From the NCBI GenBank assembly GCA_045632305.1, contig JAZQWL010000010.1, positions 67,399 to 131,398 on the forward strand: a stretch of DNA of 64,000 bases, given 5' to 3'. A program made the position numbers and the translations under genes. This DNA is from Eubacteriales bacterium. GTDB taxonomy: Bacteria > Bacillota > Clostridia > Oscillospirales > CAG-272. The notes beneath the pieces are model-generated. The model ran no database searches and had not been told where the DNA came from. It worked only from the letters and a program-made list of their open reading frames with translations. Below, piece after piece: positions 6,093 to 57,818 of the stretch (its first letter is position 1; the number at the start of each line of letters is the position of its first letter).

Positions 6093-8189
6093 ATGGGTGT
6101 AATCAATCAGCTGTCCTTTGACGTTGCGAATCTTATCGCGGCGGGAGAGGTAGTCGACAGACCTGCGTCGGCAATAAAGGAGCTTATGGAAAACTCCATT
6201 GACGCGGGGGCTAAAAGAATAACTGTTGAAATAAAGAACGGTGGCGTTACGTTTATGCGAGTATCCGACGACGGCTGCGGCATGGAGCCCGAGGATCTGC
6301 CCGTGGCGATTCTCCGCCACGCGACGAGTAAAATTTCCTCTGCGGAGGATCTTGACGGGATCGTTACGCTCGGCTTTCGCGGTGAAGCGTTGGCGGCGAT
6401 ATCCGCAGTATCAAAAATAAGAATTATCTCAAAATGCAGAGAAAACCCCATGGGTGCCGTTCTTGACGTTCATTACGGCGAGATTTTGGGGCTCAACGAG
6501 CAGGGCGCGTCAAACGGCACGACCATTATCGTCGAGGAGCTTTTCTCAAACGTTCCCGCAAGAAGAAAGTTTTTAAAGAGAGATATTACAGAGAGCAGTT
6601 TTGTCGGCACGAACGTCGAGAAAATCGCGCTCTCTCACCCCGAGATCGCTATAAGATACATTGCAGACGGCCAGGTCAAGCTTGAAACCGCAGGCGACGG
6701 CAATCTCAAAAATACGATCTATGCGGTTTACGGCAAGGATTTTTCGCAAAAGCTCATACCCGTCGATATGGAATATGACGGAATAAGAGTTTCGGGCTTT
6801 ATCGGTCGTTCCGATAACGTCAAGGGTAACCGTGGCGGCGAGAACTTTTATATAAATAATCGCTTTATCAAGAGCAAGACCGCGACGGCGGCGATAGAGC
6901 AGGCGTATTCCTCTTATATGCCGAGCGAAAAATTCCCCGTGTGCGTGCTTTTCATCGAGCTGTCCCCGGGGCGTGTTGACGTAAACGTGCATCCTGCAAA
7001 GCTCGAGGTCAAATTCTCGAACGAAAAGCCCGTGTTCGAGGCGGTTTATTATGCGGTAAAGCAGGCGCTTGAATCAAGCGCGTACCGTCCCGAAATTTTC
7101 AAAGCACCCGAGAGAAAAAATACTCTTGCGGCATCACAGCTTGAGGTTTCGGTTGAACGTGGCGAGTCGCAGAAGAAAAATCAGATGTCCATCGACTTTG
7201 TAACGCAGAGCGGTAACGGTGGATTCCATAAAATGAGCGCGGCTGATTACGTAAATACTTACGTAAACGGAGGCAGAACGCCGACACCCACTCCCGCTCC
7301 CTCGCCAAAGGCGGAGCAGAGACCTGCTCCCGTGCCCACACCTGCATTTAAGGTCGAAGAGACGAAGGAGCGCGTGAGCGCGCCCGTGTACACGGAACGC
7401 GTGGCAAGTGTTCAGAGGGTGATCCCGAAGGAGGATAGCTCCGTAAGTAATTCAAAGCCGAGCGAGGTCATCCCGTCCTACGAAAGCTATATTAAGCAAT
7501 CAACGGCAGAGAAAGAGAAGACACCCACGGTAAAAAAGATGCCCGAGCCGAGTGTTGCGACCGCTCCGCTTGTTGATACGGAGAACGTTCAGAGCGTATC
7601 GAACGGTAAAACGAGCTGGAGATATATCGGAGAGGCGTTCAATTCGTATATTATATGCGAGTTTGATGAGAAGCTTCTTATAATAGACAAGCACGCGGCG
7701 CACGAGAGAATCCTATTTGAGGAGCTCAAGGCGAATATGTATCGCGCGGAGGGCTCGTCGCAGATACTCATGCTCCCCATCGAGGTCATGCTTATGAGCG
7801 ATGAGATACAGTGTCTTGAGCAGTACCGCTCCGAGATCGAGGCGGTCGGATTTTCCTTTGAAAGCGCGAGAAATACTGTGTTCGTAACCGAAATTCCCAC
7901 GGGCATCGAGACCGAGGACGTTGCGAACTTTATGGCAGTTATAGCTGAGCGTCTTCGTGACGGAACGGGAAATATTGAGATCACAAGAAATCTCCTCTTT
8001 GAGCGCGCGCTTTATCAGGCATCCTGCAAGGCGGCTATCAAGGCGGGCAGGGAATACACGAAGGATTACAATCTCTGGATAATCCGAAAGCTTATGGAAA
8101 TTCCCGACATTACGGTCTGTCCTCACGGTCGTCCCGTGGCGATGACGTTCTCGAAGAGCAATATGGACCGTCAATTTGAAAGAACTTAA
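6093..8189 (+). CDS. mutL: DNA mismatch repair protein MutL
   Basis: GHKL ATPase N-terminus (IAAGEVVDRPASAIKELMENSIDAG), a Pro-rich linker and a C-terminal dimerisation domain. Directly downstream of mutS. Confidence 0.96.
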   Translation: MGVINQLSFDVANLIAAGEVVDRPASAIKELMENSIDAGAKRITVEIKNGGVTFMRVSDDGCGMEPEDLPVAILRHATSKISSAEDLDGIVTLGFRGEALAAISAVSKIRIISKCRENPMGAVLDVHYGEILGLNEQGASNGTTIIVEELFSNVPARRKFLKRDITESSFVGTNVEKIALSHPEIAIRYIADGQVKLETAGDGNLKNTIYAVYGKDFSQKLIPVDMEYDGIRVSGFIGRSDNVKGNRGGENFYINNRFIKSKTATAAIEQAYSSYMPSEKFPVCVLFIELSPGRVDVNVHPAKLEVKFSNEKPVFEAVYYAVKQALESSAYRPEIFKAPERKNTLAASQLEVSVERGESQKKNQMSIDFVTQSGNGGFHKMSAADYVNTYVNGGRTPTPTPAPSPKAEQRPAPVPTPAFKVEETKERVSAPVYTERVASVQRVIPKEDSSVSNSKPSEVIPSYESYIKQSTAEKEKTPTVKKMPEPSVATAPLVDTENVQSVSNGKTSWRYIGEAFNSYIICEFDEKLLIIDKHAAHERILFEELKANMYRAEGSSQILMLPIEVMLMSDEIQCLEQYRSEIEAVGFSFESARNTVFVTEIPTGIETEDVANFMAVIAERLRDGTGNIEITRNLLFERALYQASCKAAIKAGREYTKDYNLWIIRKLMEIPDITVCPHGRPVAMTFSKSNMDRQFERT

Positions 8190-12919: not shown

Positions 12920-13372
12920 GTGAAGGTTAAAATTGAAATATCGCAGGACGCGTCCTGCGAGGTCATAATTAAATGCCGCGAGATAAACGATGAGGTATTG
13001 CATATTGAGTCGCTTCTGACACAGAGAGGAAGCGCGGAAATGCCGCTTTATATAGGCGACGATGAGTATTTTGTCCTAAAGAAAGACGTTTTGTTTTTTG
13101 AAACGACTCTCGGTAAGGTTTACGCGCATACAAGGGATCGAATGTATCTGTGTCAATATAAGCTGTTTGAGCTTGAACAGATGCTAGGCGTAAGCTTTTT
13201 GCGCATCTCTAAATCCACGGTCGTGAATATCATGGAGATAAGCTCTCTGCATAAGGACATTACGGGCAGCGGTGAGATCCGCTTCCGCAGAAGCGACAAG
13301 ACAACCTATTTTTCGCGCGGTTACGCGAAGATATTGAAGGATAGAATTGAAGAAATGAGGTTTGGAAAATGA
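12920..13372 (+). CDS. Stand-alone LytTR-domain transcriptional regulator
   Basis: 150 aa with a GTG start. LytTR pattern (FFETTLGKVYAHT...YKLFELEQML...FLRISKSTVVNI). Preceded by TTTACA-17-TATAAT. Confidence 0.8.
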   Translation: MKVKIEISQDASCEVIIKCREINDEVLHIESLLTQRGSAEMPLYIGDDEYFVLKKDVLFFETTLGKVYAHTRDRMYLCQYKLFELEQMLGVSFLRISKSTVVNIMEISSLHKDITGSGEIRFRRSDKTTYFSRGYAKILKDRIEEMRFGK

Positions 13373-14202
13373 AGATAACAGTTTGGGAAAGAAAACGCGT
13401 GAGCGCCTCAACTATCGTTTGGGGATTGTTTATAATAGCGATTGCGGTGTTCTGTATTTTGCAGGCGCTTGGAGTTTTGGGCGGATTTACAAGTATGTTC
13501 GGTGTGATCCCGATATGGAAATTGATACTTGGCGTCGGCTTGCTTGCGATAGCTGTGAGGGGTATCGTGAAATTAAGATTAGACGAGGTGTTCGTGCCGC
13601 TCGGATTTATCTTCATGCTTTTTGAAAAAAATATCGCGTTTGCTTCAGGACGTGAAGAAGACATAATCAACAATTGGCTTGTGTTCGGTTGCTGCTGTCT
13701 TTTGTCCATCGGATTTGGATTAATTCTCCCTAAGAGAAGAAAAAGATTCAAGAAAAAGACAAATTACAAGATCAAGAACGGTCATCTGAGAGTCGATATT
13801 GACGATGACGATAAGATCGAGGTCGAGGCAGAGGATAATGATTCCGATGAGTTCGACGATGACGAATTTGATGAGGATTTTGAAGATTACAAGAGTGATT
13901 TTGCGACTGCAAACACCCGTTATTTTGACGGAGCAACGTTCAAAAAGGGTTACGTTATGATCAATATGGGCGCGACCGACGTAATATTTGAAAATCCTGA
14001 AAAATATCAAGGTGGCGGCGTGCTCAAGGTTGAGTGTAAGATGGGTGCTCTGTCCGTTTCGGTGCCTGAAGAGTGGCGCGTTGTTACAAACATTGCCAAC
14101 AGAATGGGATCCGTTTCCGACAATCATAAAAACAATGACCCGAACGCTCCCGTTTTGACCATCGTCGGCGAGTGTGTAATGGGCGCAATCGATATTGAAT
14201 AA
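13369..14202 (+). CDS. Membrane protein partner of the LytTR regulator (LiaF-like C-terminal beta domain, acidic linker)
   Basis: 277 aa with a 4-bp overlap with the LytTR gene. About four N-terminal TM segments, a DIDDDDKIEVEAEDNDSDEFDDDEFDEDFEDY linker, and a C-terminal domain resembling LiaF/DUF2154-type domains. Confidence 0.55.
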   Translation: MKITVWERKRVSASTIVWGLFIIAIAVFCILQALGVLGGFTSMFGVIPIWKLILGVGLLAIAVRGIVKLRLDEVFVPLGFIFMLFEKNIAFASGREEDIINNWLVFGCCCLLSIGFGLILPKRRKRFKKKTNYKIKNGHLRVDIDDDDKIEVEAEDNDSDEFDDDEFDEDFEDYKSDFATANTRYFDGATFKKGYVMINMGATDVIFENPEKYQGGGVLKVECKMGALSVSVPEEWRVVTNIANRMGSVSDNHKNNDPNAPVLTIVGECVMGAIDIE

Positions 14203-16085: not shown

Positions 16086-16124
16086 AAAAGCCTCCGTTGA
16101 GTAGATCTCAACGGAGGCTTATTT
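16086..16124. terminator. Bidirectional terminator shared by rny (+) and the helicase gene (-)
   Basis: 13-bp perfect stem AGCCTCCGTTGAG/CTCAACGGAGGCT with T-runs on both strands. Confidence 0.8.
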
Positions 16125-18416
16125 TTATTTTATCTCCCCGAACAGCTCGCGGATCTTGTCCTCGGGCTCATCGGCGCGCAATTTATCGGTCGCGTAGGCG
16201 CGGCGCAGAAGGGATTGCGGTATATAGGGGTCGTACTTTTCAAATATGGGTATTTCGCCATTTTCAACCAGCTCGTGCGGGTTGATTCCGTATCTTTCAA
16301 CGTCCTGCATAAGTCGGGAGATAAGATAATCGGGGCTTGTTTTCTCCATTTTGAAGGTGATATAGTAGCAGCCCTCAAATTCTATGCCTGAAATATTGAA
16401 TTTCTGCGCATTATTCTTCAAATACTTGCGAAGCGTTCTGAAGGAGCGTGTGCCAAGCCACGGGAAGAGGCAATAGGAATAGCCGCCAAGATGCACGAGG
16501 GACTGCTCGAGCATACCCGTATTTCGGGCGCATCTGCGCGCGATCTCAAGGCGCTTTTGCGCGTTTTCCTTGAGGTATGGGTAAACCGTGTCCTCCATAA
16601 GCACCTGCTTCATACGCATAAGGATCTTGGTGTGTATCTCACCAAAGTCGCCGGGCCAGGAGATTTCCATTTTGCCGTCGACCTTTTTAACGTAAATGAG
16701 CTTTCTTTGTATATCAAGCTCCTCGACCTCCCAGACTCTGCCCGCCAGAGCAAAGCGGTCGCCGACGGGCGGGGGAGTGGTTATCGTGCCGATCTCGTCC
16801 GAGCCGCAACGAACTGTAAAGTCCTCACTGTCCTTGAAGACCGCGAAGAATTTGTAGCTGCGAAGAAGTCGCTCGCCCGCAAGACCGATTATAAGTCCGC
16901 CGATCTCGGTCAGTTGAATATAATCGCAGTTGAGCATGGAAAGAATAAGCTCCTTATAATCCTCTCGGCTTACGCTGAGGAAGGGCGGTAGCGTCAGGAC
17001 TCGTTCGGCAAGCGCGCGGGGAGAAAGCTCTCCGCTTGAAGCTAATACGCTGAGTGTCTGGTGGAAAAGCAAGCTCATTGGCATTTTCTTTATCTGTGGC
17101 GGTTCGATAAACCGTTCCTCGATATAGAGCTGAATTATTGCAATACCGCGGAGAAGCTCCCACGGAATAAGCTGGGGCAGGGGTGTGTTCGGAAGCGCTT
17201 CTTCCTCACGAAATACCATCATCATTTCGGGGGGCATATCACGTCTGCCCGAGCGACCGAGACGCTGCAGGAAGTTGGAAACCGTATTAGGCGCTTGCAT
17301 CTGGAGAACTCTTTGAAGCTTGCCGATATCAATTCCAAGCTCCATTGTAACCGTCGCGCAGGTGGTGATGTTTTCCTCATCGTCACGCATTTTCATTTCC
17401 GCTTCTTCACGCAGAGAGGCGGAAAGGTTGCCGTGGTGGATAAGGATTCGGGAATCGTTGTCTCCACGCGCTTTTGCTATCTGTCGCATCGTCGCGCAGA
17501 TATATTCGGTCTCTTCTCGGGAATTTGAGAAAACAATGGATTTTGCGTCCTTTACGCAATCGTATGCGTATTCGTACCCGGGATCTATTTTCGGCACGAT
17601 GAATTTCGGGTCGCAGCTTACGGGTATGTTCTCGCCTGCGATATTATCGCCTGCGGGAGCGGTGTCTGTGTCGGTATGTTCCGCTTTGTATTTTTCCGCC
17701 TCGGGATTTTCAATGTAAAAATGCTCAAGGCCAAGACGCCACCTGATCTTTTCGTTTCCGAATATGGGCGTGTCGACCGCTCTTCCTGTGTCCGCGGTGA
17801 GCCATTGCGCGGCAAGAGAAGGGTCGCCAATAGTGGCGGAAAGACCTATTCGTCTCGGGTGGTAGCCGATAAGACGGGCCAAACGGGATAGCTGGCAGAT
17901 TATCTGGTTGCCTCGGTCGGTACTCGTCAGGGTATGTATCTCATCAATGATTACAAAGCGGAGGTCGCCGAAAAGTCGCGGGATATCGTTCGAGCGGTTT
18001 ATTAGCATCGCTTCAAGCGATTCGGGAGTGATCTGCAAAATTCCGCGGGGCTTGTCGAGCAGCTTTTTCTTGTGGGATGCCGAAACGTCGCCGTGCCAAT
18101 GGGTGACTTCAACTCCCGACATATCGAGAACCTCGCTTATGCGCTCAAACTGATCGTTTATCAAGCTCTTGAGCGGCGCGATATAAAGCACACCGATGGA
18201 ATACGGGGGAGCTTCGTTTAGAAGGGAGAGAACGGGGAAAAATGCCGCCTCCGTCTTGCCGCTTGCGGTTGAAGAGGTGAGCAGGAGATTATTGTCGGTA
18301 TCAAAAATACTCCTCGCCGCCTCAATCTGAACTGCGCGAAGCGATTCCCATGAGTGCGCGTATATATATTCTCTTATATAGTCGGGAAAACGGTCAAAAA
18401 TCTTCTCGCTGTTCAT
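16125..18416 (-). CDS. sngC: Superfamily-2 DExH helicase, third gene of the TerB/ATPase/helicase cassette (Shango SngC-like)
   Basis: 763 aa. Motif I SSTASGKTEAA, motif II VIIDEIH, motif III GLSAT, motif VI QRLGRSGRR, plus a ~300-aa C-terminal domain of unknown function. AAAGGAG RBS 18 nt after the upstream stop. Symbol assigned by gene order and architecture from memory. Confidence 0.75.
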   Translation of the reverse strand: MNSEKIFDRFPDYIREYIYAHSWESLRAVQIEAARSIFDTDNNLLLTSSTASGKTEAAFFPVLSLLNEAPPYSIGVLYIAPLKSLINDQFERISEVLDMSGVEVTHWHGDVSASHKKKLLDKPRGILQITPESLEAMLINRSNDIPRLFGDLRFVIIDEIHTLTSTDRGNQIICQLSRLARLIGYHPRRIGLSATIGDPSLAAQWLTADTGRAVDTPIFGNEKIRWRLGLEHFYIENPEAEKYKAEHTDTDTAPAGDNIAGENIPVSCDPKFIVPKIDPGYEYAYDCVKDAKSIVFSNSREETEYICATMRQIAKARGDNDSRILIHHGNLSASLREEAEMKMRDDEENITTCATVTMELGIDIGKLQRVLQMQAPNTVSNFLQRLGRSGRRDMPPEMMMVFREEEALPNTPLPQLIPWELLRGIAIIQLYIEERFIEPPQIKKMPMSLLFHQTLSVLASSGELSPRALAERVLTLPPFLSVSREDYKELILSMLNCDYIQLTEIGGLIIGLAGERLLRSYKFFAVFKDSEDFTVRCGSDEIGTITTPPPVGDRFALAGRVWEVEELDIQRKLIYVKKVDGKMEISWPGDFGEIHTKILMRMKQVLMEDTVYPYLKENAQKRLEIARRCARNTGMLEQSLVHLGGYSYCLFPWLGTRSFRTLRKYLKNNAQKFNISGIEFEGCYYITFKMEKTSPDYLISRLMQDVERYGINPHELVENGEIPIFEKYDPYIPQSLLRRAYATDKLRADEPEDKIRELFGEIK

Positions 18417-18434
18417 ATTTTTCTCCTTTAAAGA

Positions 18435-19808
18435 TTAAAATTCGATATCTGCGGCGGTATACGTTCTGTTCTGTGCGGGAGCTTGGGGTGTGATCGGCTC
18501 GCCGTCACCTATGTCCGCATGCGAGAGCGTAACGCTTTTACCGACCACGTCGGAAAATTTCGCGTCGGGATTCTGCATCAGGATATTGAGCACCGTCATA
18601 TAGTCGCGAAGCATTTCACGGGGGGTTATCATACTGTCAGCGCCCGCGCGGGAAAGACAGATATTTAAAAATTCAACTCTTTCCTCTTCGGTTATGGTGC
18701 AATTCCAATTATAATACTGCGAGTAAAGCGCAGTTACACGGCAGATGAGCGCATAAAGCTCGTCGTCGGATAGACGCTTTAAGCGGATCACGGGGCCGAT
18801 AAGATTCTTGAATCCGTCAAGCGCGAAACGGCTGTCGCAAAGACGGGAGCGGAGGGCTTCGTAGCTGAAAAGTCCGCGTCGTGTGTCCTCAAGGAACTGA
18901 GGCGTGCCGCCAAAGATGATATCGAGCCCGGGAGAGCGTCCCTGAAGTGTATCGTTGAACATGGAAAGGATCTTTTCGTAGTTGTTCTCTCGGCTGATTC
19001 TGTGAGGGATCTTGTAGAGGTTTACGCATTCATCGATAAAAACTACAAGTCCGCGGTAGCCCATCTTCTTTGAGAGAGCCGCTAAGAGTTTTAGAAAGTC
19101 ATACCAGTTGTCATCGTCAATAATTACGGAAACCGAGAAGCCGAGAGCTTTTTTTGCCTCAGTCTTGGTCGCGTATTCACCGCGAAGCCAACGGATACAA
19201 GCGCTTGCGCGCTCTCTTGCCGCCTCTCCGTCCTCCATTGTCGCCTTGTAATATTCGATGATCACCTTGGAAAAGTCAAAGCCGCCAACGAGAAATTCAA
19301 GAGAGGAAAGCTCGCTTGAAACTCTCTTTGTAAGCTCCATGTAAAATACTTCACCGTCGGAGGAAATGCCACTCTGGAGAAGGTCGTTTTTTATCTGACC
19401 GATCCAGCGGGAAATGATCTTTGTGAGCGCGCCACCGTCGGGGGAGGATTTTGACGCTAAGTTCTTCATAAGCTCGCGATAGGTTGCGACGCCCGAGCCA
19501 CCCGTACCGTAAAGTCGACGCTCGGGGGAGAGATCGCAGTCTGCGGTCAAAAAGTCGCGATCGAGCGCGTAGCCGCGCACAAGCTGGATGAGAAAGCTCT
19601 TGCCGCTTCCGTATCGACCGATAAGGAAACGCATAGCGCCGCCGCCCTCGTTTACCTCCTCAAGGTCGGAAAGAAACGCGCTTATCTCGTCAGCTCGTCC
19701 GATTGCGATATAAGGCGCGCCCGATCTCGGTACTACGCCTGCGGATATGCTTGAGAGAAGAGAAGAGAGAATTCTTCTCGGAATTATTGGTGTTGTGTTG
19801 TCTGTCAT
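18435..19808 (-). CDS. sngB: DUF2791/BrxC-D-like P-loop ATPase (Shango SngB-like)
   Basis: 457 aa with Walker A GRYGSGKSF and Walker B VVFIDEC. Overall resemblance to the DUF2791 ATP-binding family. Its RBS TAAGGAGG overlaps the stop codon of the upstream TerB gene. Confidence 0.7.
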   Translation of the reverse strand: MTDNTTPIIPRRILSSLLSSISAGVVPRSGAPYIAIGRADEISAFLSDLEEVNEGGGAMRFLIGRYGSGKSFLIQLVRGYALDRDFLTADCDLSPERRLYGTGGSGVATYRELMKNLASKSSPDGGALTKIISRWIGQIKNDLLQSGISSDGEVFYMELTKRVSSELSSLEFLVGGFDFSKVIIEYYKATMEDGEAARERASACIRWLRGEYATKTEAKKALGFSVSVIIDDDNWYDFLKLLAALSKKMGYRGLVVFIDECVNLYKIPHRISRENNYEKILSMFNDTLQGRSPGLDIIFGGTPQFLEDTRRGLFSYEALRSRLCDSRFALDGFKNLIGPVIRLKRLSDDELYALICRVTALYSQYYNWNCTITEEERVEFLNICLSRAGADSMITPREMLRDYMTVLNILMQNPDAKFSDVVGKSVTLSHADIGDGEPITPQAPAQNRTYTAADIEF

Positions 19809-19819
19809 ATCTGTCCTCC

Positions 19820-21667
19820 TTATATGAGGTCTGTGTAATCTTCAATAACCGTGTATTTTTCGCCGTCGAAATCAAGAATAATGTCACCGATGATATTCAC
19901 GGCAAGCTCGTTTATAATATCCGCAAGTCCGTCGAGCGTCATGCCGTGTGATCTTGCGTAGCTTTTTTGTTCCTGAGGTGAACCGCTTTTGCAAATAAGC
20001 AAAAATTCATGATGCTCGCCCCACGAGGGTGAGTTGAGAGTTAAGAGTGAAGAGTTAAGAGTTGAGGTGGATTTTTGTCCAAGACAAAAATCTTCATTTG
20101 ATTTTAACTCTTCATTCTGCATTCTGCACTCTGCACTTGCATTTAACTCTGCACTCTGCACTCTGCACTCTGCACTTGCATTTAACTCTGCACTCTGCAT
20201 TCTGCACTTTGCACTTGCATTTAACTCTGCACTCTGCACTCTGCACTCTGCACTTGCATTAAACTTTGCACTCTGCATTCTGCACTCTGCACTTGCATTT
20301 AACTCTGCACTCTGCATTCTGCACTCTGCACTTTCAGCAAATGCCTCGGTAAGCTTTTTTGTGGTTGCCCATGAGCGCGCCTCGATTGCCTTTGCGTTTG
20401 AAAGGGAAAGCTGCGTCTTAGGTATATCGTAAAGGTGGCTGTATTTTTCCTCAAGCTTTTGTTCTGCTTTTTGCTTTTCGCTTGCTTTTGCGGATGCAAA
20501 TTCGTCGGATACGGAGGCAAAATAACCGTCAATCACATCGGTGATCTTAAGCGGAAGCTCGCCCACCGCAAGGGATGTTCGTATGCCGAGAAGCGCGCGG
20601 AGCTTGTTTTCCGCGTAGCGTATTGCGTCGGTTACAACTCCCGCGATGCATTTTACGGGGAAGTAGCTTACAAGGATTCTTGTGTTTGGCGCGCAGAATT
20701 CGATACGCCCGTCAAAAAGCTTTCTGTCGGTGAGCTTCGTGGAAAAAATTCCCGAGGCGTTATTGATTATTTCACCGTAAGAAGCGTCATTTATAAAGCA
20801 CGCGTTGAGCGCGGCGGGAATGTGTGTATCGAACGCTGCCTTTTTTTCGTCGGTATAGAATTTGGATTTTTTGTAATCGTAGATTGAGATATGCTCAATT
20901 GCGATCGGAGCGTAGATGTGTCTGTTTGACTCCGAAAGCCCCAAGAAGAATTCGTCTGCGGAGTGATCCGTCATGAAGGTGTGAAGCACGTCGCGTATTT
21001 CTTCGATCGGGCATTTGAGCTTGTGAATAAGGCAAAAATCCGAAATAATTCTCGCGATATATATTTTACCTACCACGTTATCAAAGCAGGTTAGAGCGAT
21101 TTTTACAAGGTCTGTAAGACATCTGTGAAGATCCTCGCCCTCGCCCGCGGTAACAAGCTCCTGAATATAGAGCTTGATATATGAAATATCGGTTTTAATA
21201 AATTCGCCGTTCCTTACGTTTTCGCGCCACCAGAGGTAGTACGAAAGCTGTGCGCGTGTCATGGAGGAATATCTCGGGGAATGGGAGTAGAAGCTGACGT
21301 AGCTGCAGGGCGTACCTTTTCGTTCAAGCAACGCCGCGCGTTCGCGCATGAAGAGGGCGCTCGGCTCGAAAATATTTTTGTTTTTATCCTTGGTCGTGAT
21401 CTTGACCTTGTTTATAAAAATATTGTCGGGGGTATATTCGAGAATTGTATCGGGGGCTAAAGCTTCGGGCTTTCTGTCGGGAATCTTTACGGATGCGCTG
21501 ACAGATCCGCCACCCGTTCCCGATTCGATAAGTACACCCTCGGGAGTCGGTTGTTTGTGTATCTGGTAGGAGGGCGCGGGGCGGGAATTACCCTTATTTG
21601 CGGACAGATCCCAAAAATCGTTGCCGCCAATATCGTTGCGAGCGTAATATTTACCCGAATCTGACAT
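19820..21667 (-). CDS. sngA: TerB-N / TerB-C domain protein with internal 13-aa repeat linker (Shango SngA-like)
   Basis: 615 aa. TerB-N-like core (SPRYSSMTRAQLSYYLWWRENVRNGEFIKTDISYIKLYIQELV). Six SAECRMQSAELNA-type repeats. A TerB-C-like tail (GMTLDGLADIINELAVNIIGDIILDFDG). Confidence 0.7.
   Translation of the reverse strand: MSDSGKYYARNDIGGNDFWDLSANKGNSRPAPSYQIHKQPTPEGVLIESGTGGGSVSASVKIPDRKPEALAPDTILEYTPDNIFINKVKITTKDKNKNIFEPSALFMRERAALLERKGTPCSYVSFYSHSPRYSSMTRAQLSYYLWWRENVRNGEFIKTDISYIKLYIQELVTAGEGEDLHRCLTDLVKIALTCFDNVVGKIYIARIISDFCLIHKLKCPIEEIRDVLHTFMTDHSADEFFLGLSESNRHIYAPIAIEHISIYDYKKSKFYTDEKKAAFDTHIPAALNACFINDASYGEIINNASGIFSTKLTDRKLFDGRIEFCAPNTRILVSYFPVKCIAGVVTDAIRYAENKLRALLGIRTSLAVGELPLKITDVIDGYFASVSDEFASAKASEKQKAEQKLEEKYSHLYDIPKTQLSLSNAKAIEARSWATTKKLTEAFAESAECRMQSAELNASAECRMQSAKFNASAECRVQSAELNASAKCRMQSAELNASAECRVQSAELNASAECRMQNEELKSNEDFCLGQKSTSTLNSSLLTLNSPSWGEHHEFLLICKSGSPQEQKSYARSHGMTLDGLADIINELAVNIIGDIILDFDGEKYTVIEDYTDLI
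20104..20337. repeat. 6 x 39-bp in-frame tandem repeat, each unit built from TGCA(C/T)TC heptamers
   Basis: Units start at 20104, 20143, 20182, 20221, 20260 and 20299. The consensus on the + strand is TTAACTC TGCACTC TGCACTC TGCACTC TGCACTT GCAT. Units 2 and 4 are identical. Confidence 0.95.
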
Positions 21668-21704
21668 TTTTATCCCTCCTTGTCCGTCTTTTTCTTAATA
21701 TATA

Positions 21705-21733
21705 ATTATAACATTTTTTTTTGCTTTTGTCAA
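21705..21733 (-). promoter_or_regulatory. Consensus sigma-A promoter of the TerB/ATPase/helicase operon
   Basis: On the minus strand: TTGACA (21733-21728), 17 nt, TATAAT (21710-21705). This lies about 40 nt upstream of the AAGGAGGG RBS and ATG. Confidence 0.7.
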
Positions 21734-21744
21734 GTTATATGAGC

Positions 21745-21773
21745 TTGACAGAAAATCTCTTTTATTGTATAAT
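21745..21773 (+). promoter_or_regulatory. Consensus sigma-A promoter of the divergent small ORF
   Basis: TTGACA (21745-21750), 17 nt, TATAAT (21768-21773). Back to back with the minus-strand promoter. Confidence 0.7.
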
Positions 21774-21800: not shown

Positions 21801-22085
21801 ATGATAAAGCAGTATTTTGAAGTTAAAATTGATGAAGAAACATACAGAATCGAATATTCCTTCAATAAATTTCTCGGTAAAACCACGTTTGCCGTGAACG
21901 ATGACGAGTTTTCCACGCGCGGTCACGCCTTCGGCATCGGTGTCAAGAGAAGTGAAATGATAATGATCGGCATGACGCAGGGCGCGCTCTCCATTGATAA
22001 GAAGGGAAGAGCGAAGCTCATCTGTCGCGACGCGGACAGTGTGCGTGAGGTTGAGGGGTTTGAAGAATTCGAGTCGGAGGAATAA
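21801..22085 (+). CDS. Hypothetical 94-aa protein with acidic tail
   Basis: ATG preceded by GCGAGGTG. It has its own consensus promoter and a terminator. I recognise no family. Confidence 0.5.
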   Translation: MIKQYFEVKIDEETYRIEYSFNKFLGKTTFAVNDDEFSTRGHAFGIGVKRSEMIMIGMTQGALSIDKKGRAKLICRDADSVREVEGFEEFESEE

Positions 22086-22118
22086 AAAAGAGCAGACACA
22101 TCGTGTCTGCTCTTTTTG
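22084..22118. terminator. Bidirectional terminator
   Basis: GAGCAGACAC-atc-GTGTCTGCTC stem flanked by an A-run and a T-run. Confidence 0.8.
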
Positions 22119-27460: not shown

Positions 27461-27652
27461 TGTGGTTTACCTCCCGTACTGATGAGTAAAATAAAAAATC
27501 TTTCTTTTCCCGAAACACAAGTACACCGAGATAAAGAAAGACACAAAAATAGTAATATTATTATCATTTTGGTTTTCTCCTCGGCAGGGTGGCTTGCGCT
27601 TTTACGGGAACCTGCTGTCTTTGGATAAAGGCATTTAATTGCCTACCTTGGG
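27461..27652 (-). promoter_or_regulatory. rplJ 5' leader, probable L10-leader-type attenuator
   Basis: ~190-nt leader between a consensus promoter and rplJ. It contains a GC-rich structured part (CAGCAGGTTCCCGTAAAAGCGCAAGCCACCCTGCCGAGGAG) followed by the TCTTTCTTT...AAAGAAAGA stem plus TTTTTTATTTT before the RBS. Confidence 0.55.
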
Positions 27653-29417: not shown

Positions 29418-29750
29418 AGTGGAGCTTGATATGCGTTGAAGCGAGAGGTTGCTTCACCCGGGACGCTGGGAGAAGGTAATTTTCGCAGAGTATGTCCGTA
29501 TGAATCGGGCGACAAAGCCTTTCATACACACACCTTGCAACATGCGGCATAGTGGTGCATTGTGTTCTAACCTATCTTGTTATAACTATGGATTTTTGTT
29601 CGTTTATGCTGAAGCGTGCAAAGTCCGTATTTTAATGTTGAGGGAAAGAAACACACGGCACGGTGTACGAAAGAACGCCACTTTTACAGCACACGCAAAG
29701 CTTCATTTATTATATACGCGTGTGTGAAGATTTGAAAGGAGGCACAACTT

Positions 29751-55652: not shown

Positions 55653-57818
55653 TTAGCTTATAATATCGGATTGCAGAGTGAACATTTTCTGAATATCGTC
55701 AAGCAAGGGCTTGTGATCGTCAAGATTTTCATTTTTGATGAATTCTCTCGCGGCGGCGAACGCCTCTTCCATAAGAGATGCGTCCTCGCACATATCGGCA
55801 AGCTTGAAGTACATATCGCCGCTCTGTCTGATCTCTCGGCTTGTGGAGAGGCAGAGAAAGTCGCCGGGGCCTCGCTGCTTCAAGTCCTCCTCGGCAATCT
55901 CAAAGCCGTTGTAGGAACGCGTCATGGTTTCAAGGCGCGCTCTTGAATTCTCGGAGAGCTGGGCTTTGGATTTAGTTCCCGCAACCAAGATGCAATATGA
56001 TTTTTTGCTTCCTCTTCCAACTCGACCGCGAAGCTGATGTAACTGAGAAAGACCGAATCTTTCGGCGTTTTCTACTATCATGAGCGTGGCATTAGGCACG
56101 TTCACGCCGACCTCGATAACGGTTGTGGAAACGAGAACGTCAATATTGCCTCGGGCAAAATTGTTCATAACGGTATCCTTTTCGGCTGTTTTGAGCTTAC
56201 CGTGAACAAAGCCGATACGGAGATTTTGTAGTCGTGCCGCAAGCTCGTCCGCATATTGAACTGCCGCCTTGAGCGGAGGGGCGCTTGGTTTTTCAATATA
56301 GTCAAGTGAGGAGAGAGGAATTCCCGAAAGGTCGATTTCGTCGTCCTCAAGCTCCTTTTCTTCAACTGCAGGGCAAACGATATAAACCTGCGAGCCCTCG
56401 GATACCTGCTTTTCGATAAATGCATCAAGTCGGGAGCGGTAGCTCTCGTCAACGAGGAAGGTGTCAACCTTCTGTCTGCCTACGGGCATCTCGGTAATTT
56501 TTGAAAGATTGAGATCGCCGTACATAACGAGCGCAAGTGAGCGTGGAATAGGCGTCGCGCTCATAACGAGCATGTGGGAGTGGCGACTCTTTTTTGAGAG
56601 AGTAGCGCGCTGATTTACGCCGAAGCGATGCTGCTCGTCAATTACAGTAAGCGCGGGGGAGAAAAACTCCACCTTCTCCGAAATGAGCGCCTGCGTGCCG
56701 ATCACAATATCGATACGCTCGTCGGGATCAACGCTTGAAAGCATTGCCTGAACTCTTGCCTTCTTTGCGGGGGTAAGTGAGCCCACAAGGAGCGCACACT
56801 TGATTCCAAGCGCCTCAAACATGGGGGCGAGGTCTGCGTAGTGCTGTGTCGCGAGAATTTCGGTGGGTGCCATAAGCGCCGCCTGACCGCCGTTCTTGAC
56901 GGCAATATACATAGCCGCGGCGGCTACGACCGTTTTACCGCATCCAACGTCACCGATAACGATACGGCTCATGGGAATATCGTTCTTCATATCGCGAGCG
57001 ATGTCAGAGATCGCGTTTGTCTGACCGTCTGTCAGCTTGTACGGCAAAAGGGAAAGCAAGGGTGAGACGTCGGAGTCGGGGCATTTTTTTGCCGTACCCT
57101 CGCGAGTGACTTTTTTTGCCGAGATCGCCATACCCGTGGCAAATTTGAAGAATTCGTCGAATATAAGGCGGCGCTTGGCTTCGGACAGTGATTTTATATC
57201 GGTTGGCTTGTGTATCTGATTTATTGCAAATGAAATGTCGCAAAGACCGTGCCCGTCGAGAATATCGCGGGGCATACAATCGGGAATATTGTTTTCCACA
57301 AGTGAGAGCGCGGAGTCGACATGGGACGCGATCTGCTTTTGCGAAAGTCCGTCGGTGAGCGGGTAAATAGGTGCAAATGGGGGGAGGGGCTTGTCCTCGA
57401 AATACGGCTCTGCTACGGGGGAGCTCATTTCGTAATTTTTGCCTACTTTCTCAACCCTACCGAAAAAGCGGAAGGTTGAGCCGATGGGGAACGTGCTCTT
57501 GAGATAATCCTGATTGAAATACGTAATTTCGCACACACCAGATTCGTCGAACGCGCGGAATTTAAGGAGCGACATGCCGCGTCGAATGAGATGAACTCTT
57601 GGTGCAGTTGCAACCGTAAGAATTACTGCGCTTTTGAGGTCGGGGGACGCCTCGCAGAGCAGGGAGATGTGTGAGCGGTTTTCGTAAGCTCTCGGGAAAA
57701 AGTAGATAAGATCGCGCAGATTTTCAACGCCGAGGCGGTTGTACGCCGTCCTCTTTACTTTTCCGACGCCGTTGATAGAGCCGATAGGATATTTTGAAAG
57801 ATCGTTTAATTTTTCCAT
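55653..57818 (-). CDS. recG: ATP-dependent DNA helicase RecG
   Basis: 721 aa with an N-terminal wedge/OB domain, GDVGCGKT, DEQHRFG, SATPIPRS and QLRGRVGRG. Confidence 0.95.
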   Translation of the reverse strand: MEKLNDLSKYPIGSINGVGKVKRTAYNRLGVENLRDLIYFFPRAYENRSHISLLCEASPDLKSAVILTVATAPRVHLIRRGMSLLKFRAFDESGVCEITYFNQDYLKSTFPIGSTFRFFGRVEKVGKNYEMSSPVAEPYFEDKPLPPFAPIYPLTDGLSQKQIASHVDSALSLVENNIPDCMPRDILDGHGLCDISFAINQIHKPTDIKSLSEAKRRLIFDEFFKFATGMAISAKKVTREGTAKKCPDSDVSPLLSLLPYKLTDGQTNAISDIARDMKNDIPMSRIVIGDVGCGKTVVAAAAMYIAVKNGGQAALMAPTEILATQHYADLAPMFEALGIKCALLVGSLTPAKKARVQAMLSSVDPDERIDIVIGTQALISEKVEFFSPALTVIDEQHRFGVNQRATLSKKSRHSHMLVMSATPIPRSLALVMYGDLNLSKITEMPVGRQKVDTFLVDESYRSRLDAFIEKQVSEGSQVYIVCPAVEEKELEDDEIDLSGIPLSSLDYIEKPSAPPLKAAVQYADELAARLQNLRIGFVHGKLKTAEKDTVMNNFARGNIDVLVSTTVIEVGVNVPNATLMIVENAERFGLSQLHQLRGRVGRGSKKSYCILVAGTKSKAQLSENSRARLETMTRSYNGFEIAEEDLKQRGPGDFLCLSTSREIRQSGDMYFKLADMCEDASLMEEAFAAAREFIKNENLDDHKPLLDDIQKMFTLQSDIIS

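Follow-up and report, generated by a model that had tools for sequence, protein, structure and literature searches.

A probable Shango-type defence operon resident among housekeeping genes of a Clostridia gut bacterium

The window analyzed here was the whole stretch of 64,000 nucleotides from contig JAZQWL010000010.1 of a Clostridia bacterium (assembly GCA_045632305.1), and the locus in question was a cassette of three minus-strand genes, sngA, sngB and sngC, within positions 16,086–21,773. The cassette is an intact three-gene Shango (SngABC) system and a typical member of an already described family. We regard its membership of the Shango family as highly probable, because PADLOC called all three proteins and the Pfam domains agreed. 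As judged from the sequence, the locus can be read with good confidence as an intact, expressed Shango-type defence operon that has long been resident in the chromosome of this gut bacterium. A defence role in the present host is likely, and the specific mechanism proposed below for SngABC is tentative and rather doubtful. An initial annotation of the window had proposed a TerB-N/TerB-C protein, a DUF2791-type ATPase and a DExH helicase of Shango type, which was borne out by the profiles, the conserved gene order and the literature. It had also presented the cassette as the best candidate for the unusual system of the window; the cassette is an ordinary member of a described family. The genes and their signals were as follows.

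21705–21733, minus strand: sngABC promoter, TTGACA, 17-nt spacer and TATAAT, 12/12 match in a consensus scan, with an upstream TG giving an extended -10
19820–21667, minus strand: sngA, 615 amino acids (aa), TerB-N/TerB-C protein
18435–19808, minus strand: sngB, 457 aa, BrxD-family (DUF2791) P-loop ATPase
16125–18416, minus strand: sngC, 763 aa, superfamily 2 (SF2) DExH helicase with Lhr-core architecture
16088–16120, both strands: bidirectional intrinsic terminator common to sngC (minus) and rny (plus), 14-bp stem with 8 G-C pairs and U-tracts on both strands

Profile searches were run against PADLOC, Pfam, NCBIfam and PHROGs, and the PADLOC scan also covered the flanking genes and ten further large open reading frames (ORFs). 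Each of the three proteins found its best match in the corresponding PADLOC Shango model: SngA at 6.3e-35 (aa 105–613 on profile positions 82–521 of 528), SngB at 3.1e-159 and SngC at 1.3e-236. In Pfam, SngA matched TerB_N (1.9e-12) and TerB_C (3.7e-8, residues 556–613), both exceeding the gathering scores, and the TerB_N match was restricted to residues 101–172, corresponding to profile positions 29–96 of 207. SngB matched BrxC_BrxD (1.7e-152), and SngC matched DEAD (3e-27), Helicase_C (9e-16) and, weakly, WH_Lhr. The profile searches and the defence-system scan suggested in the initial annotation thus recovered TerB_N, TerB_C, BrxC_BrxD and DEAD/Helicase_C and called SngA, SngB and SngC. Every motif it had listed was present in the translations: Walker A (GRYGSGKS) and Walker B (VVFIDE) were intact in SngB, as were motifs I, II, III and VI in SngC (GKT, occurring as SGKT, DEIH, SAT and QRLGRSGRR). 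No nuclease or toxin domain was detectable in SngA, SngB or SngC. The locus therefore combined an SngA with TerB_N and TerB_C, a DUF2791 SngB with Walker A/B and an SngC of the BrxHI/Lhr-like clade with its motifs, encoded by adjacent, co-oriented genes in the order A-B-C between a single promoter and a single terminator.

The next-best PADLOC matches were BrxD for SngB (5.8e-49) and BrxHI for SngC (5.9e-122). SngC falls with BrxHI, DruE and DpdJ into an SF2 clade associated with defence (PMC12278908). In type 2 BREX, BrxD and BrxHI are closely linked as a dyad, and BrxD has been proposed as a helicase loader, according to a 2026 study in Nucleic Acids Research (PMC12839542). Like SngB and SngC, this dyad comprises an ORC/Cdc6-like standalone ATPase and an Lhr/Ski2-like helicase, and the domain set given for BrxHI (winged helix, beta-barrel and Lhr-type C-terminal domain; PMC12839542) matches the SngC model. 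The cassette could accordingly derive from a type 2 BREX (Pgl) system, either as a satellite or as a remnant with the BrxD-BrxHI dyad as the sole survivor. However, the Sng models scored ~2–3 times as many bits as the Brx models, and the NCBIfam BREX_BrxD model gave SngB 166 bits against a cut-off of 350. No PglX, PglZ, BrxC or PglW was found in the flanking genes, the ten large ORFs scanned or the syntenic loci, and a TerB-N/TerB-C gene always leads the triad; in place of the methyltransferase, PglZ, BrxC and PglW of type 2 BREX, the Shango locus has the TerB-N/TerB-C protein. A BREX remnant is very improbable on this evidence and was rejected.

The A-B-C order recurred at unrelated loci (L088–L091): on a Clostridium estertheticum plasmid, after a his operon and after large genes. 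Distant SngA homologues were found in other contexts but always in the A-B-C order, with the TerB-N/TerB-C gene always first. Shango is widespread, as the SngA query matched (E ≤ 0.001) 1362 cluster representatives in a 50%-identity library, and the present copy leaves this overall picture unchanged. Anantharaman and colleagues are reported in later papers to have predicted the triad in 2012 as a DNA-processing or conflict system. The TerB/ATPase/helicase triad with anti-phage activity was named Shango (Millman 2022, bioRxiv 10.1101/2022.05.11.491447; Johnson 2023, PMC10250203). In the published assays it reduced plaques modestly and protected liquid cultures well, and phage resistance has been established for the Pseudomonas aeruginosa (PA14) and Escherichia coli Shango systems only (PMC10250203; bioRxiv 10.1101/2022.05.11.491447). 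No mechanistic paper was found in the searchable literature, in agreement with the initial annotation, which named no mechanism, and a 2025 preprint still termed the role of TerB unclear. The present cassette has the same three protein families in the same order as the PA14 and E. coli prototypes, and the PADLOC models cover nearly the full length of the proteins. It differs from the prototypes in four respects: its host is a Gram-positive gut anaerobe; it is solitary between housekeeping genes, whereas the prototypes lie in a defence hotspot or mobile element; a 39-bp repeat lengthens its SngA linker; and a divergent, lineage-specific gene, orf94, lies alongside.

The sngABC genes are predicted to form one operon, in which a single promoter and a single terminator frame three translationally coupled genes. 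The spacing between sngA and sngB was 11 nt, with the sngB ATG at 19808 (junction read from the sequence), and the sngA stop codon TAA (19822–19820) supplied the first letters of TAAGGAGG (19822–19815), the ribosome-binding site of sngB. The sngB stop was separated from the sngC ATG (18416) by 18 nt that contained AAAGGAG. From the -35 box to ~+20, the promoter was near-invariant across the related loci L001, L081 and L085, while the adjacent spacer diverged. The terminator shared by sngC and rny had folding energies of -25.5 and -27.3 kcal/mol on the two strands (z ~-8 vs. shuffles). The translational coupling, the intergenic distances (11 and 18 nt) and the perfect TTGACA-17-TATAAT promoter had all been described before and were confirmed by the ORF positions, the junction reading and the scan. 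The terminator had likewise been recognized as bidirectional and common with rny, and its stem is 14 bp rather than 13 bp in length.

The AlphaFold2 (AF2) model of SngC had a mean predicted local distance difference test (pLDDT) score of 68 and comprised RecA1, a variable insert (aa 220–277), RecA2, a winged helix (aa 445–520), a beta-barrel (aa 533–579) and an alpha+beta C-terminal domain (aa 596–763). Its best Foldseek match was the Lhr core of Mycobacterium smegmatis (5V9X; E 1.8e-23, full length, 855 aligned columns), followed by MrfA, and Lhr and MrfA were also the top PDB sequence matches. According to the model, the C-terminal ~300 aa of SngC are the winged-helix, beta-barrel and C-terminal-domain module of the Lhr core. 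The initial annotation had the helicase motifs right, and the structure prediction it suggested gave this Lhr-core module where it had described a ~300-aa uncharacterised C-terminal domain. The match with Lhr-core and MrfA/YprA (6ZNP), the best relatives of SngC, extended over RecA1, RecA2, the winged helix and the C-terminal domains. However, identity to these was 18–21%, SngC has neither the long Lhr C-terminal extension nor the DUF1998 zinc module of MrfA, and it is co-encoded with SngA and SngB. The best NCBIfam match, TIGR04121 (ligase-associated DEXH), reached 205 bits against a cut-off of 850, and PRK09751 reached 90 bits against 1496. SngC thus resembles Lhr without being its orthologue, with a modelled fold like that of the Lhr core and Lhr-type scores under the cut-offs.

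The genes flanking the cassette encoded RNase Y (rny), a LytTR/LiaF-like pair, a P-II-like protein, DUF1538 and glycyl-tRNA synthetase (GlyRS), and thus agreed with the flanks given previously (rny on one side, P-II/DUF1538 and glyQS on the other). By its rny gene, the window falls into an uncultured gut lineage that is Eubacteriales/Oscillospiraceae-like. The occurrence of the cassette was assessed in an rny-based sample of 80 rny loci searched by tblastn with the window proteins. Shango convergent with rny was found at 4 of the 80, with the following identities.

L001 (the closest species representative by rny): rny 93%, SngC 92%, SngB 95%, SngA 71%
L002 (contig stops within sngC): rny 83%, SngC 76%
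L005: rny 84%, SngC 75%, SngB 78%, SngA 35%
L010: rny 75%, SngC 68%, SngB 72%, SngA 30%

The accessory count was based on the species representatives (n = 20) whose rny was ≥70% identical and whose sequence continued for ≥3 kb downstream. The cassette was present in three of these related species and missing in 17, and hence it is not universally conserved, as shown by the presence/absence comparison that the initial annotation had suggested. All genus-level relatives (L081–L087, obtained by exact-protein look-up) carried the cassette at the same site; farther relatives were rearranged and so offered no comparable empty site. The synonymous divergence (dS) of sngB and sngC was within the range of the flanking genes. 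There was no tRNA in the window, no flanking direct repeat or att-like repeat, no GC anomaly and no integrase among the neighbours, and a recent insertion or mobile island was rejected on these grounds. SngB homologues were present on 697 plasmids, 542 of which were conjugative, and this was counted as support for mobility of the family elsewhere; no match to SngB was found in 50,697 phage records. Taken together, the comparison indicates that at the family level the cassette is accessory, that within the genus it is fixed and passed on vertically, and that it was not inserted recently. The earlier description as a self-contained accessory insertion was therefore right as to the accessory nature and overstated as to the insertion.

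The AF2 model of SngA (56-sequence alignment, mean pLDDT 76.6) showed a confident core (~aa 70–400) and a C-terminal domain (aa 547–615), pLDDT >90. A conserved long helix occupied aa 409–457, and the linker at ~aa 458–546 was disordered and hypervariable (pLDDT <50). The N-terminal 70 residues were disordered, yet they contained an invariant FW inside a DFWDL motif conserved in the alignment of the 56 homologues. The TerB_C domain was acidic (net -9 over 69 aa) and had an acidic cluster of invariant D, N, E, G and D. Its helix-helix-helix-strand-strand order resembles that of a winged helix, a candidate that was rejected as unsupported, the domain being too acidic for DNA binding. Sequence and profile searches with SngA, SngB and TerB_C against PDB sequences gave nothing meaningful, and SngA and SngB belonged to no family in PHROGs and NCBIfam, except for the sub-threshold BrxD match of SngB.

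The presence of the Pfam TerB_N and TerB_C domains, and an acidic TerB_C cluster that could chelate metal, might suggest a place for the cassette in a Ter-type stress response to metals or tellurite. However, the TerB core domain (PF05099) was absent from SngA even at E ≤ 10, no TerC, TerD, TerZ or other Ter-system family was found in the flanking genes, and the partner genes encode nucleic-acid motors. This explanation is extremely unlikely and was rejected. SngA has its TerB-family label and proposed sensor role in common with Bunzi BnzA and Dionysus DinB. In contrast to SngA, which lacks the TerB core, BnzA and DinB carry the TerB domain and have membrane or pore-forming partners; the SngA model has no predicted membrane segment, and its partners are nucleic-acid motors.

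Pairwise Nei-Gojobori estimates were used for nonsynonymous (dN) and synonymous divergence, in which dS values >1 are unreliable. For the same genome pairs (window vs. L081 and L086), the dN of sngA was 0.23–0.24, compared with 0.034–0.052 for sngB and sngC, and the amino-acid change of SngA was 6–7 times faster than that of SngB and SngC. The values against L081 were as follows.

sngA: dN 0.24, dS 2.3 (saturated)
sngB: dN 0.036, dS 0.91
sngC: dN 0.034, dS 0.71
flanking genes: dS 0.42–1.23

The dN/dS ratios of sngA, sngB and sngC were 0.035–0.15 (0.04–0.09 for sngB and 0.035–0.058 for sngC), indicating purifying selection on all three. SngA identity dropped to 30–35% where SngB and SngC held 68–78%. 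The divergence of SngA was spread along its length with a peak in the linker, and the TerB_N motif at ~aa 126–150 was the most conserved part. These comparisons single out SngA as the subunit that diverges rapidly; SngB and SngC appear conserved like housekeeping genes. The dS of sngA (~2.3) also exceeded that of sngB and sngC (0.7–1.5; window vs. L081, L086 and L087; saturated dS values), which gives a hint that the sngA alleles may be older or may have been exchanged.

The linker of SngA was 106 aa long in the window, compared with a median of 49.5 aa in the 56 homologues, and its expansion coincided with a tandem repeat.

20103–20333, minus strand: tandem repeat in the sngA linker, 39-bp unit, 5.9 copies (Tandem Repeats Finder score 413, 93% matches)

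The repeat-expanded linker noted in the initial annotation was thereby substantiated. Each 39-bp unit contained four GCAGAGT/GCAGAAT heptamers and encoded the 13-aa SAECRMQSAELNA. The SngA allele of L085/P0001 (550 aa) was 98% identical over the aligned columns and had one repeat copy, and an AECR[MV]Q motif was present in variable number in six other SngA homologues. A (GCAGART)4 tract followed by a short hairpin was found in intergenic positions in two relatives (L020:1621–1647 and L022:5493–5519), in which the sequence retrieved around rny contained no Shango. Because the same tract is intergenic in relatives without Shango at the locus, the heptamer tract appears to be a repeat element of the lineage as a whole, one instance of which was taken up in frame by sngA. 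Phase variation through heptamer slippage was considered and rejected, as the alleles differed by in-frame 39-bp units only, with no evidence of frameshift switching. A short way downstream of the array in the sngA coding sequence (20031–20131), a perfect GACAAAAA/TTTTTGTC stem formed the centre of an imperfect inverted repeat of 49 nt (71% complementary), and a long hairpin is conceivable in the linker DNA.

A mechanism may be sketched for SngABC as follows. SngB, as a BrxD-type ORC/Cdc6-like AAA+ ATPase, would load or activate SngC on single-stranded or hybrid nucleic acid of the phage, in line with the loader proposal for BrxD-BrxHI. SngC would move 3′-to-5′ on single-stranded nucleic acid, by analogy with Lhr, and would take apart phage replication or transcription intermediates (for instance forks, D-loops or R-loops) or expose them to host nucleases. 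SngA would be the fast-evolving sensor or adaptor, whose folded TerB-N core recognises the trigger. Contact with SngB/SngC or with some other partner would be made by its DFWDL peptide and by the acidic TerB-C on a flexible tether that varies in length. The cassette would protect the cell directly and not through cell suicide. The raised dN of SngA and its low identity relative to SngB and SngC were counted as support for SngA as the specificity subunit.

Several observations weigh against the reading as a defence operon that works in this way. The published protection by Shango was modest, 10–100 fold. No effector domain was visible in the cassette proteins, and the blocking or killing step is a guess. 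The core and the TerB_C domain of SngA had no structural relatives in Foldseek searches against PDB and BFVD (nothing at E <0.3), and as a consequence the sensor role is drawn only from evolutionary rate and architecture. The TerB_C domain is unlikely to bind DNA itself because it is strongly acidic. PADLOC, run on the flanking genes and on ten further large ORFs, called no other system, and so there was no defence island. Finally, the position of the cassette among housekeeping genes and its vertical inheritance in the genus also fit a role in repair or maintenance.

The last two points lead to a different explanation, in which the cassette is a housekeeping module for DNA repair or replication restart and its Lhr-like helicase, AAA+ loader and adaptor serve genome maintenance. 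Such a module would agree with Lhr and MrfA, both repair helicases, as the closest solved relatives, with the ligase-associated DNA-damage-response DEXH helicase as the best NCBIfam match (though far under its cut-off), with the single site between core genes and flank-like dS, and with the strong consensus promoter. However, the cassette is dispensable because it is absent from 17 of the 20 related species with sequence at the site, and the Sng profile gave 786 bits compared with 205 bits for the best repair-helicase model. Phage protection by the family has been shown experimentally (PMC10250203; bioRxiv 10.1101/2022.05.11.491447), the fast change of SngA is typical of conflict genes, and homologues are common on conjugative plasmids. 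On balance, we consider a repair module unlikely and retain the reading of the cassette as a Shango-type defence operon.

The features of the locus listed in the initial annotation held; what it missed was orf94, a gene divergent from sngA with a perfect promoter of its own.

21745–21773, plus strand: orf94 promoter, perfect TTGACA-17-TATAAT (12/12), hexamers conserved
21801–22085, plus strand: orf94, 94 aa, acidic C-terminal tail, divergent from sngA
22085–22117, plus strand: orf94 terminator, 15-bp perfect stem (-22.8 kcal/mol, z -7.5), separating orf94 from the convergent P-II-like gene

The -35 boxes of the sngA and orf94 promoters formed an inverted repeat (21725–21753). The product of orf94 had no family in Pfam, PHROG, NCBIfam or PADLOC. 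All 16 homologues found were inside the clade, most of them on contigs of the same lengths as contigs that bear sngA, and dN/dS was 0.07–0.24. The gene stayed beside sngA where P-II/DUF1538 was missing (L087) and where a YccF gene was inserted (L089, orf94 identity 49%), and it was absent at the more distant Shango loci L005, L010, L090 and L091. These comparisons make it possible that orf94 is a lineage-specific companion of the cassette, and shared synteny explains the same data. A bolder proposal is that the lineage has a tunable Shango of four parts, in which orf94 is a regulator or inhibitor, sngA is a swappable specificity cassette, and the reach of TerB-C is set by gain and loss of 39-bp units from a genome-wide heptamer element. 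It is based on the interlocked promoters and on the sngA dS of ~3 times that of sngB and sngC (a hint of allele exchange or long-maintained alleles), and we consider it improbable.

The value of the locus lies in its linker-length alleles, the rate contrast of SngA and the candidate companion gene, and not in a new kind of system. The natural alleles differ almost solely in linker repeat number (one vs. ~six), and the rate contrast sets SngA apart from SngB and SngC. The compact operon of a Gram-positive gut anaerobe with clear native signals, together with orf94 as candidate companion, provides further useful handles. All these features together open a direct way to ask what SngA senses and whether tether length matters.

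The surroundings of the cassette also varied among relatives. The interval between sngC and rny, which contained no gene in the window, held one or two extra genes in relatives and is a small variable spot; the extras (L001:11963–13216, L081:12346–14840 and L005:5898–6680) encoded lipoprotein-like products of 417, 485 and 321 aa and one product of 260 aa. On the other side, the P-II-like/DUF1538 pair was missing in L087 (10001–11868), where orf94 abutted glyQS, and the YccF gene was inserted in L089 at 6200–6562. Because of these two differences, the "housekeeping" flank on the P-II side is itself variable. Upstream of rny, the LytTR pair was kept in relatives; in the window (12920–14202, plus strand) it comprised a LytTR DNA-binding protein of 150 aa with a 4-nt overlap with a 277-aa membrane protein, which matched LiaF-TM weakly and was acidic in its central stretch.

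Elsewhere in the window, a helicase-like ORF of 721 aa (55653–57818, minus strand) had weak PADLOC matches only, to PbeA (4e-12) and to the helicase domains of DpdF and Cas3, and is probably a housekeeping helicase. Rfam found a ribosomal protein L10 leader (27483–27642, minus strand) and an S10-Clostridia leader (29427–29515, plus strand), both over the gathering scores, which confirmed the ribosomal-protein operons nearby.

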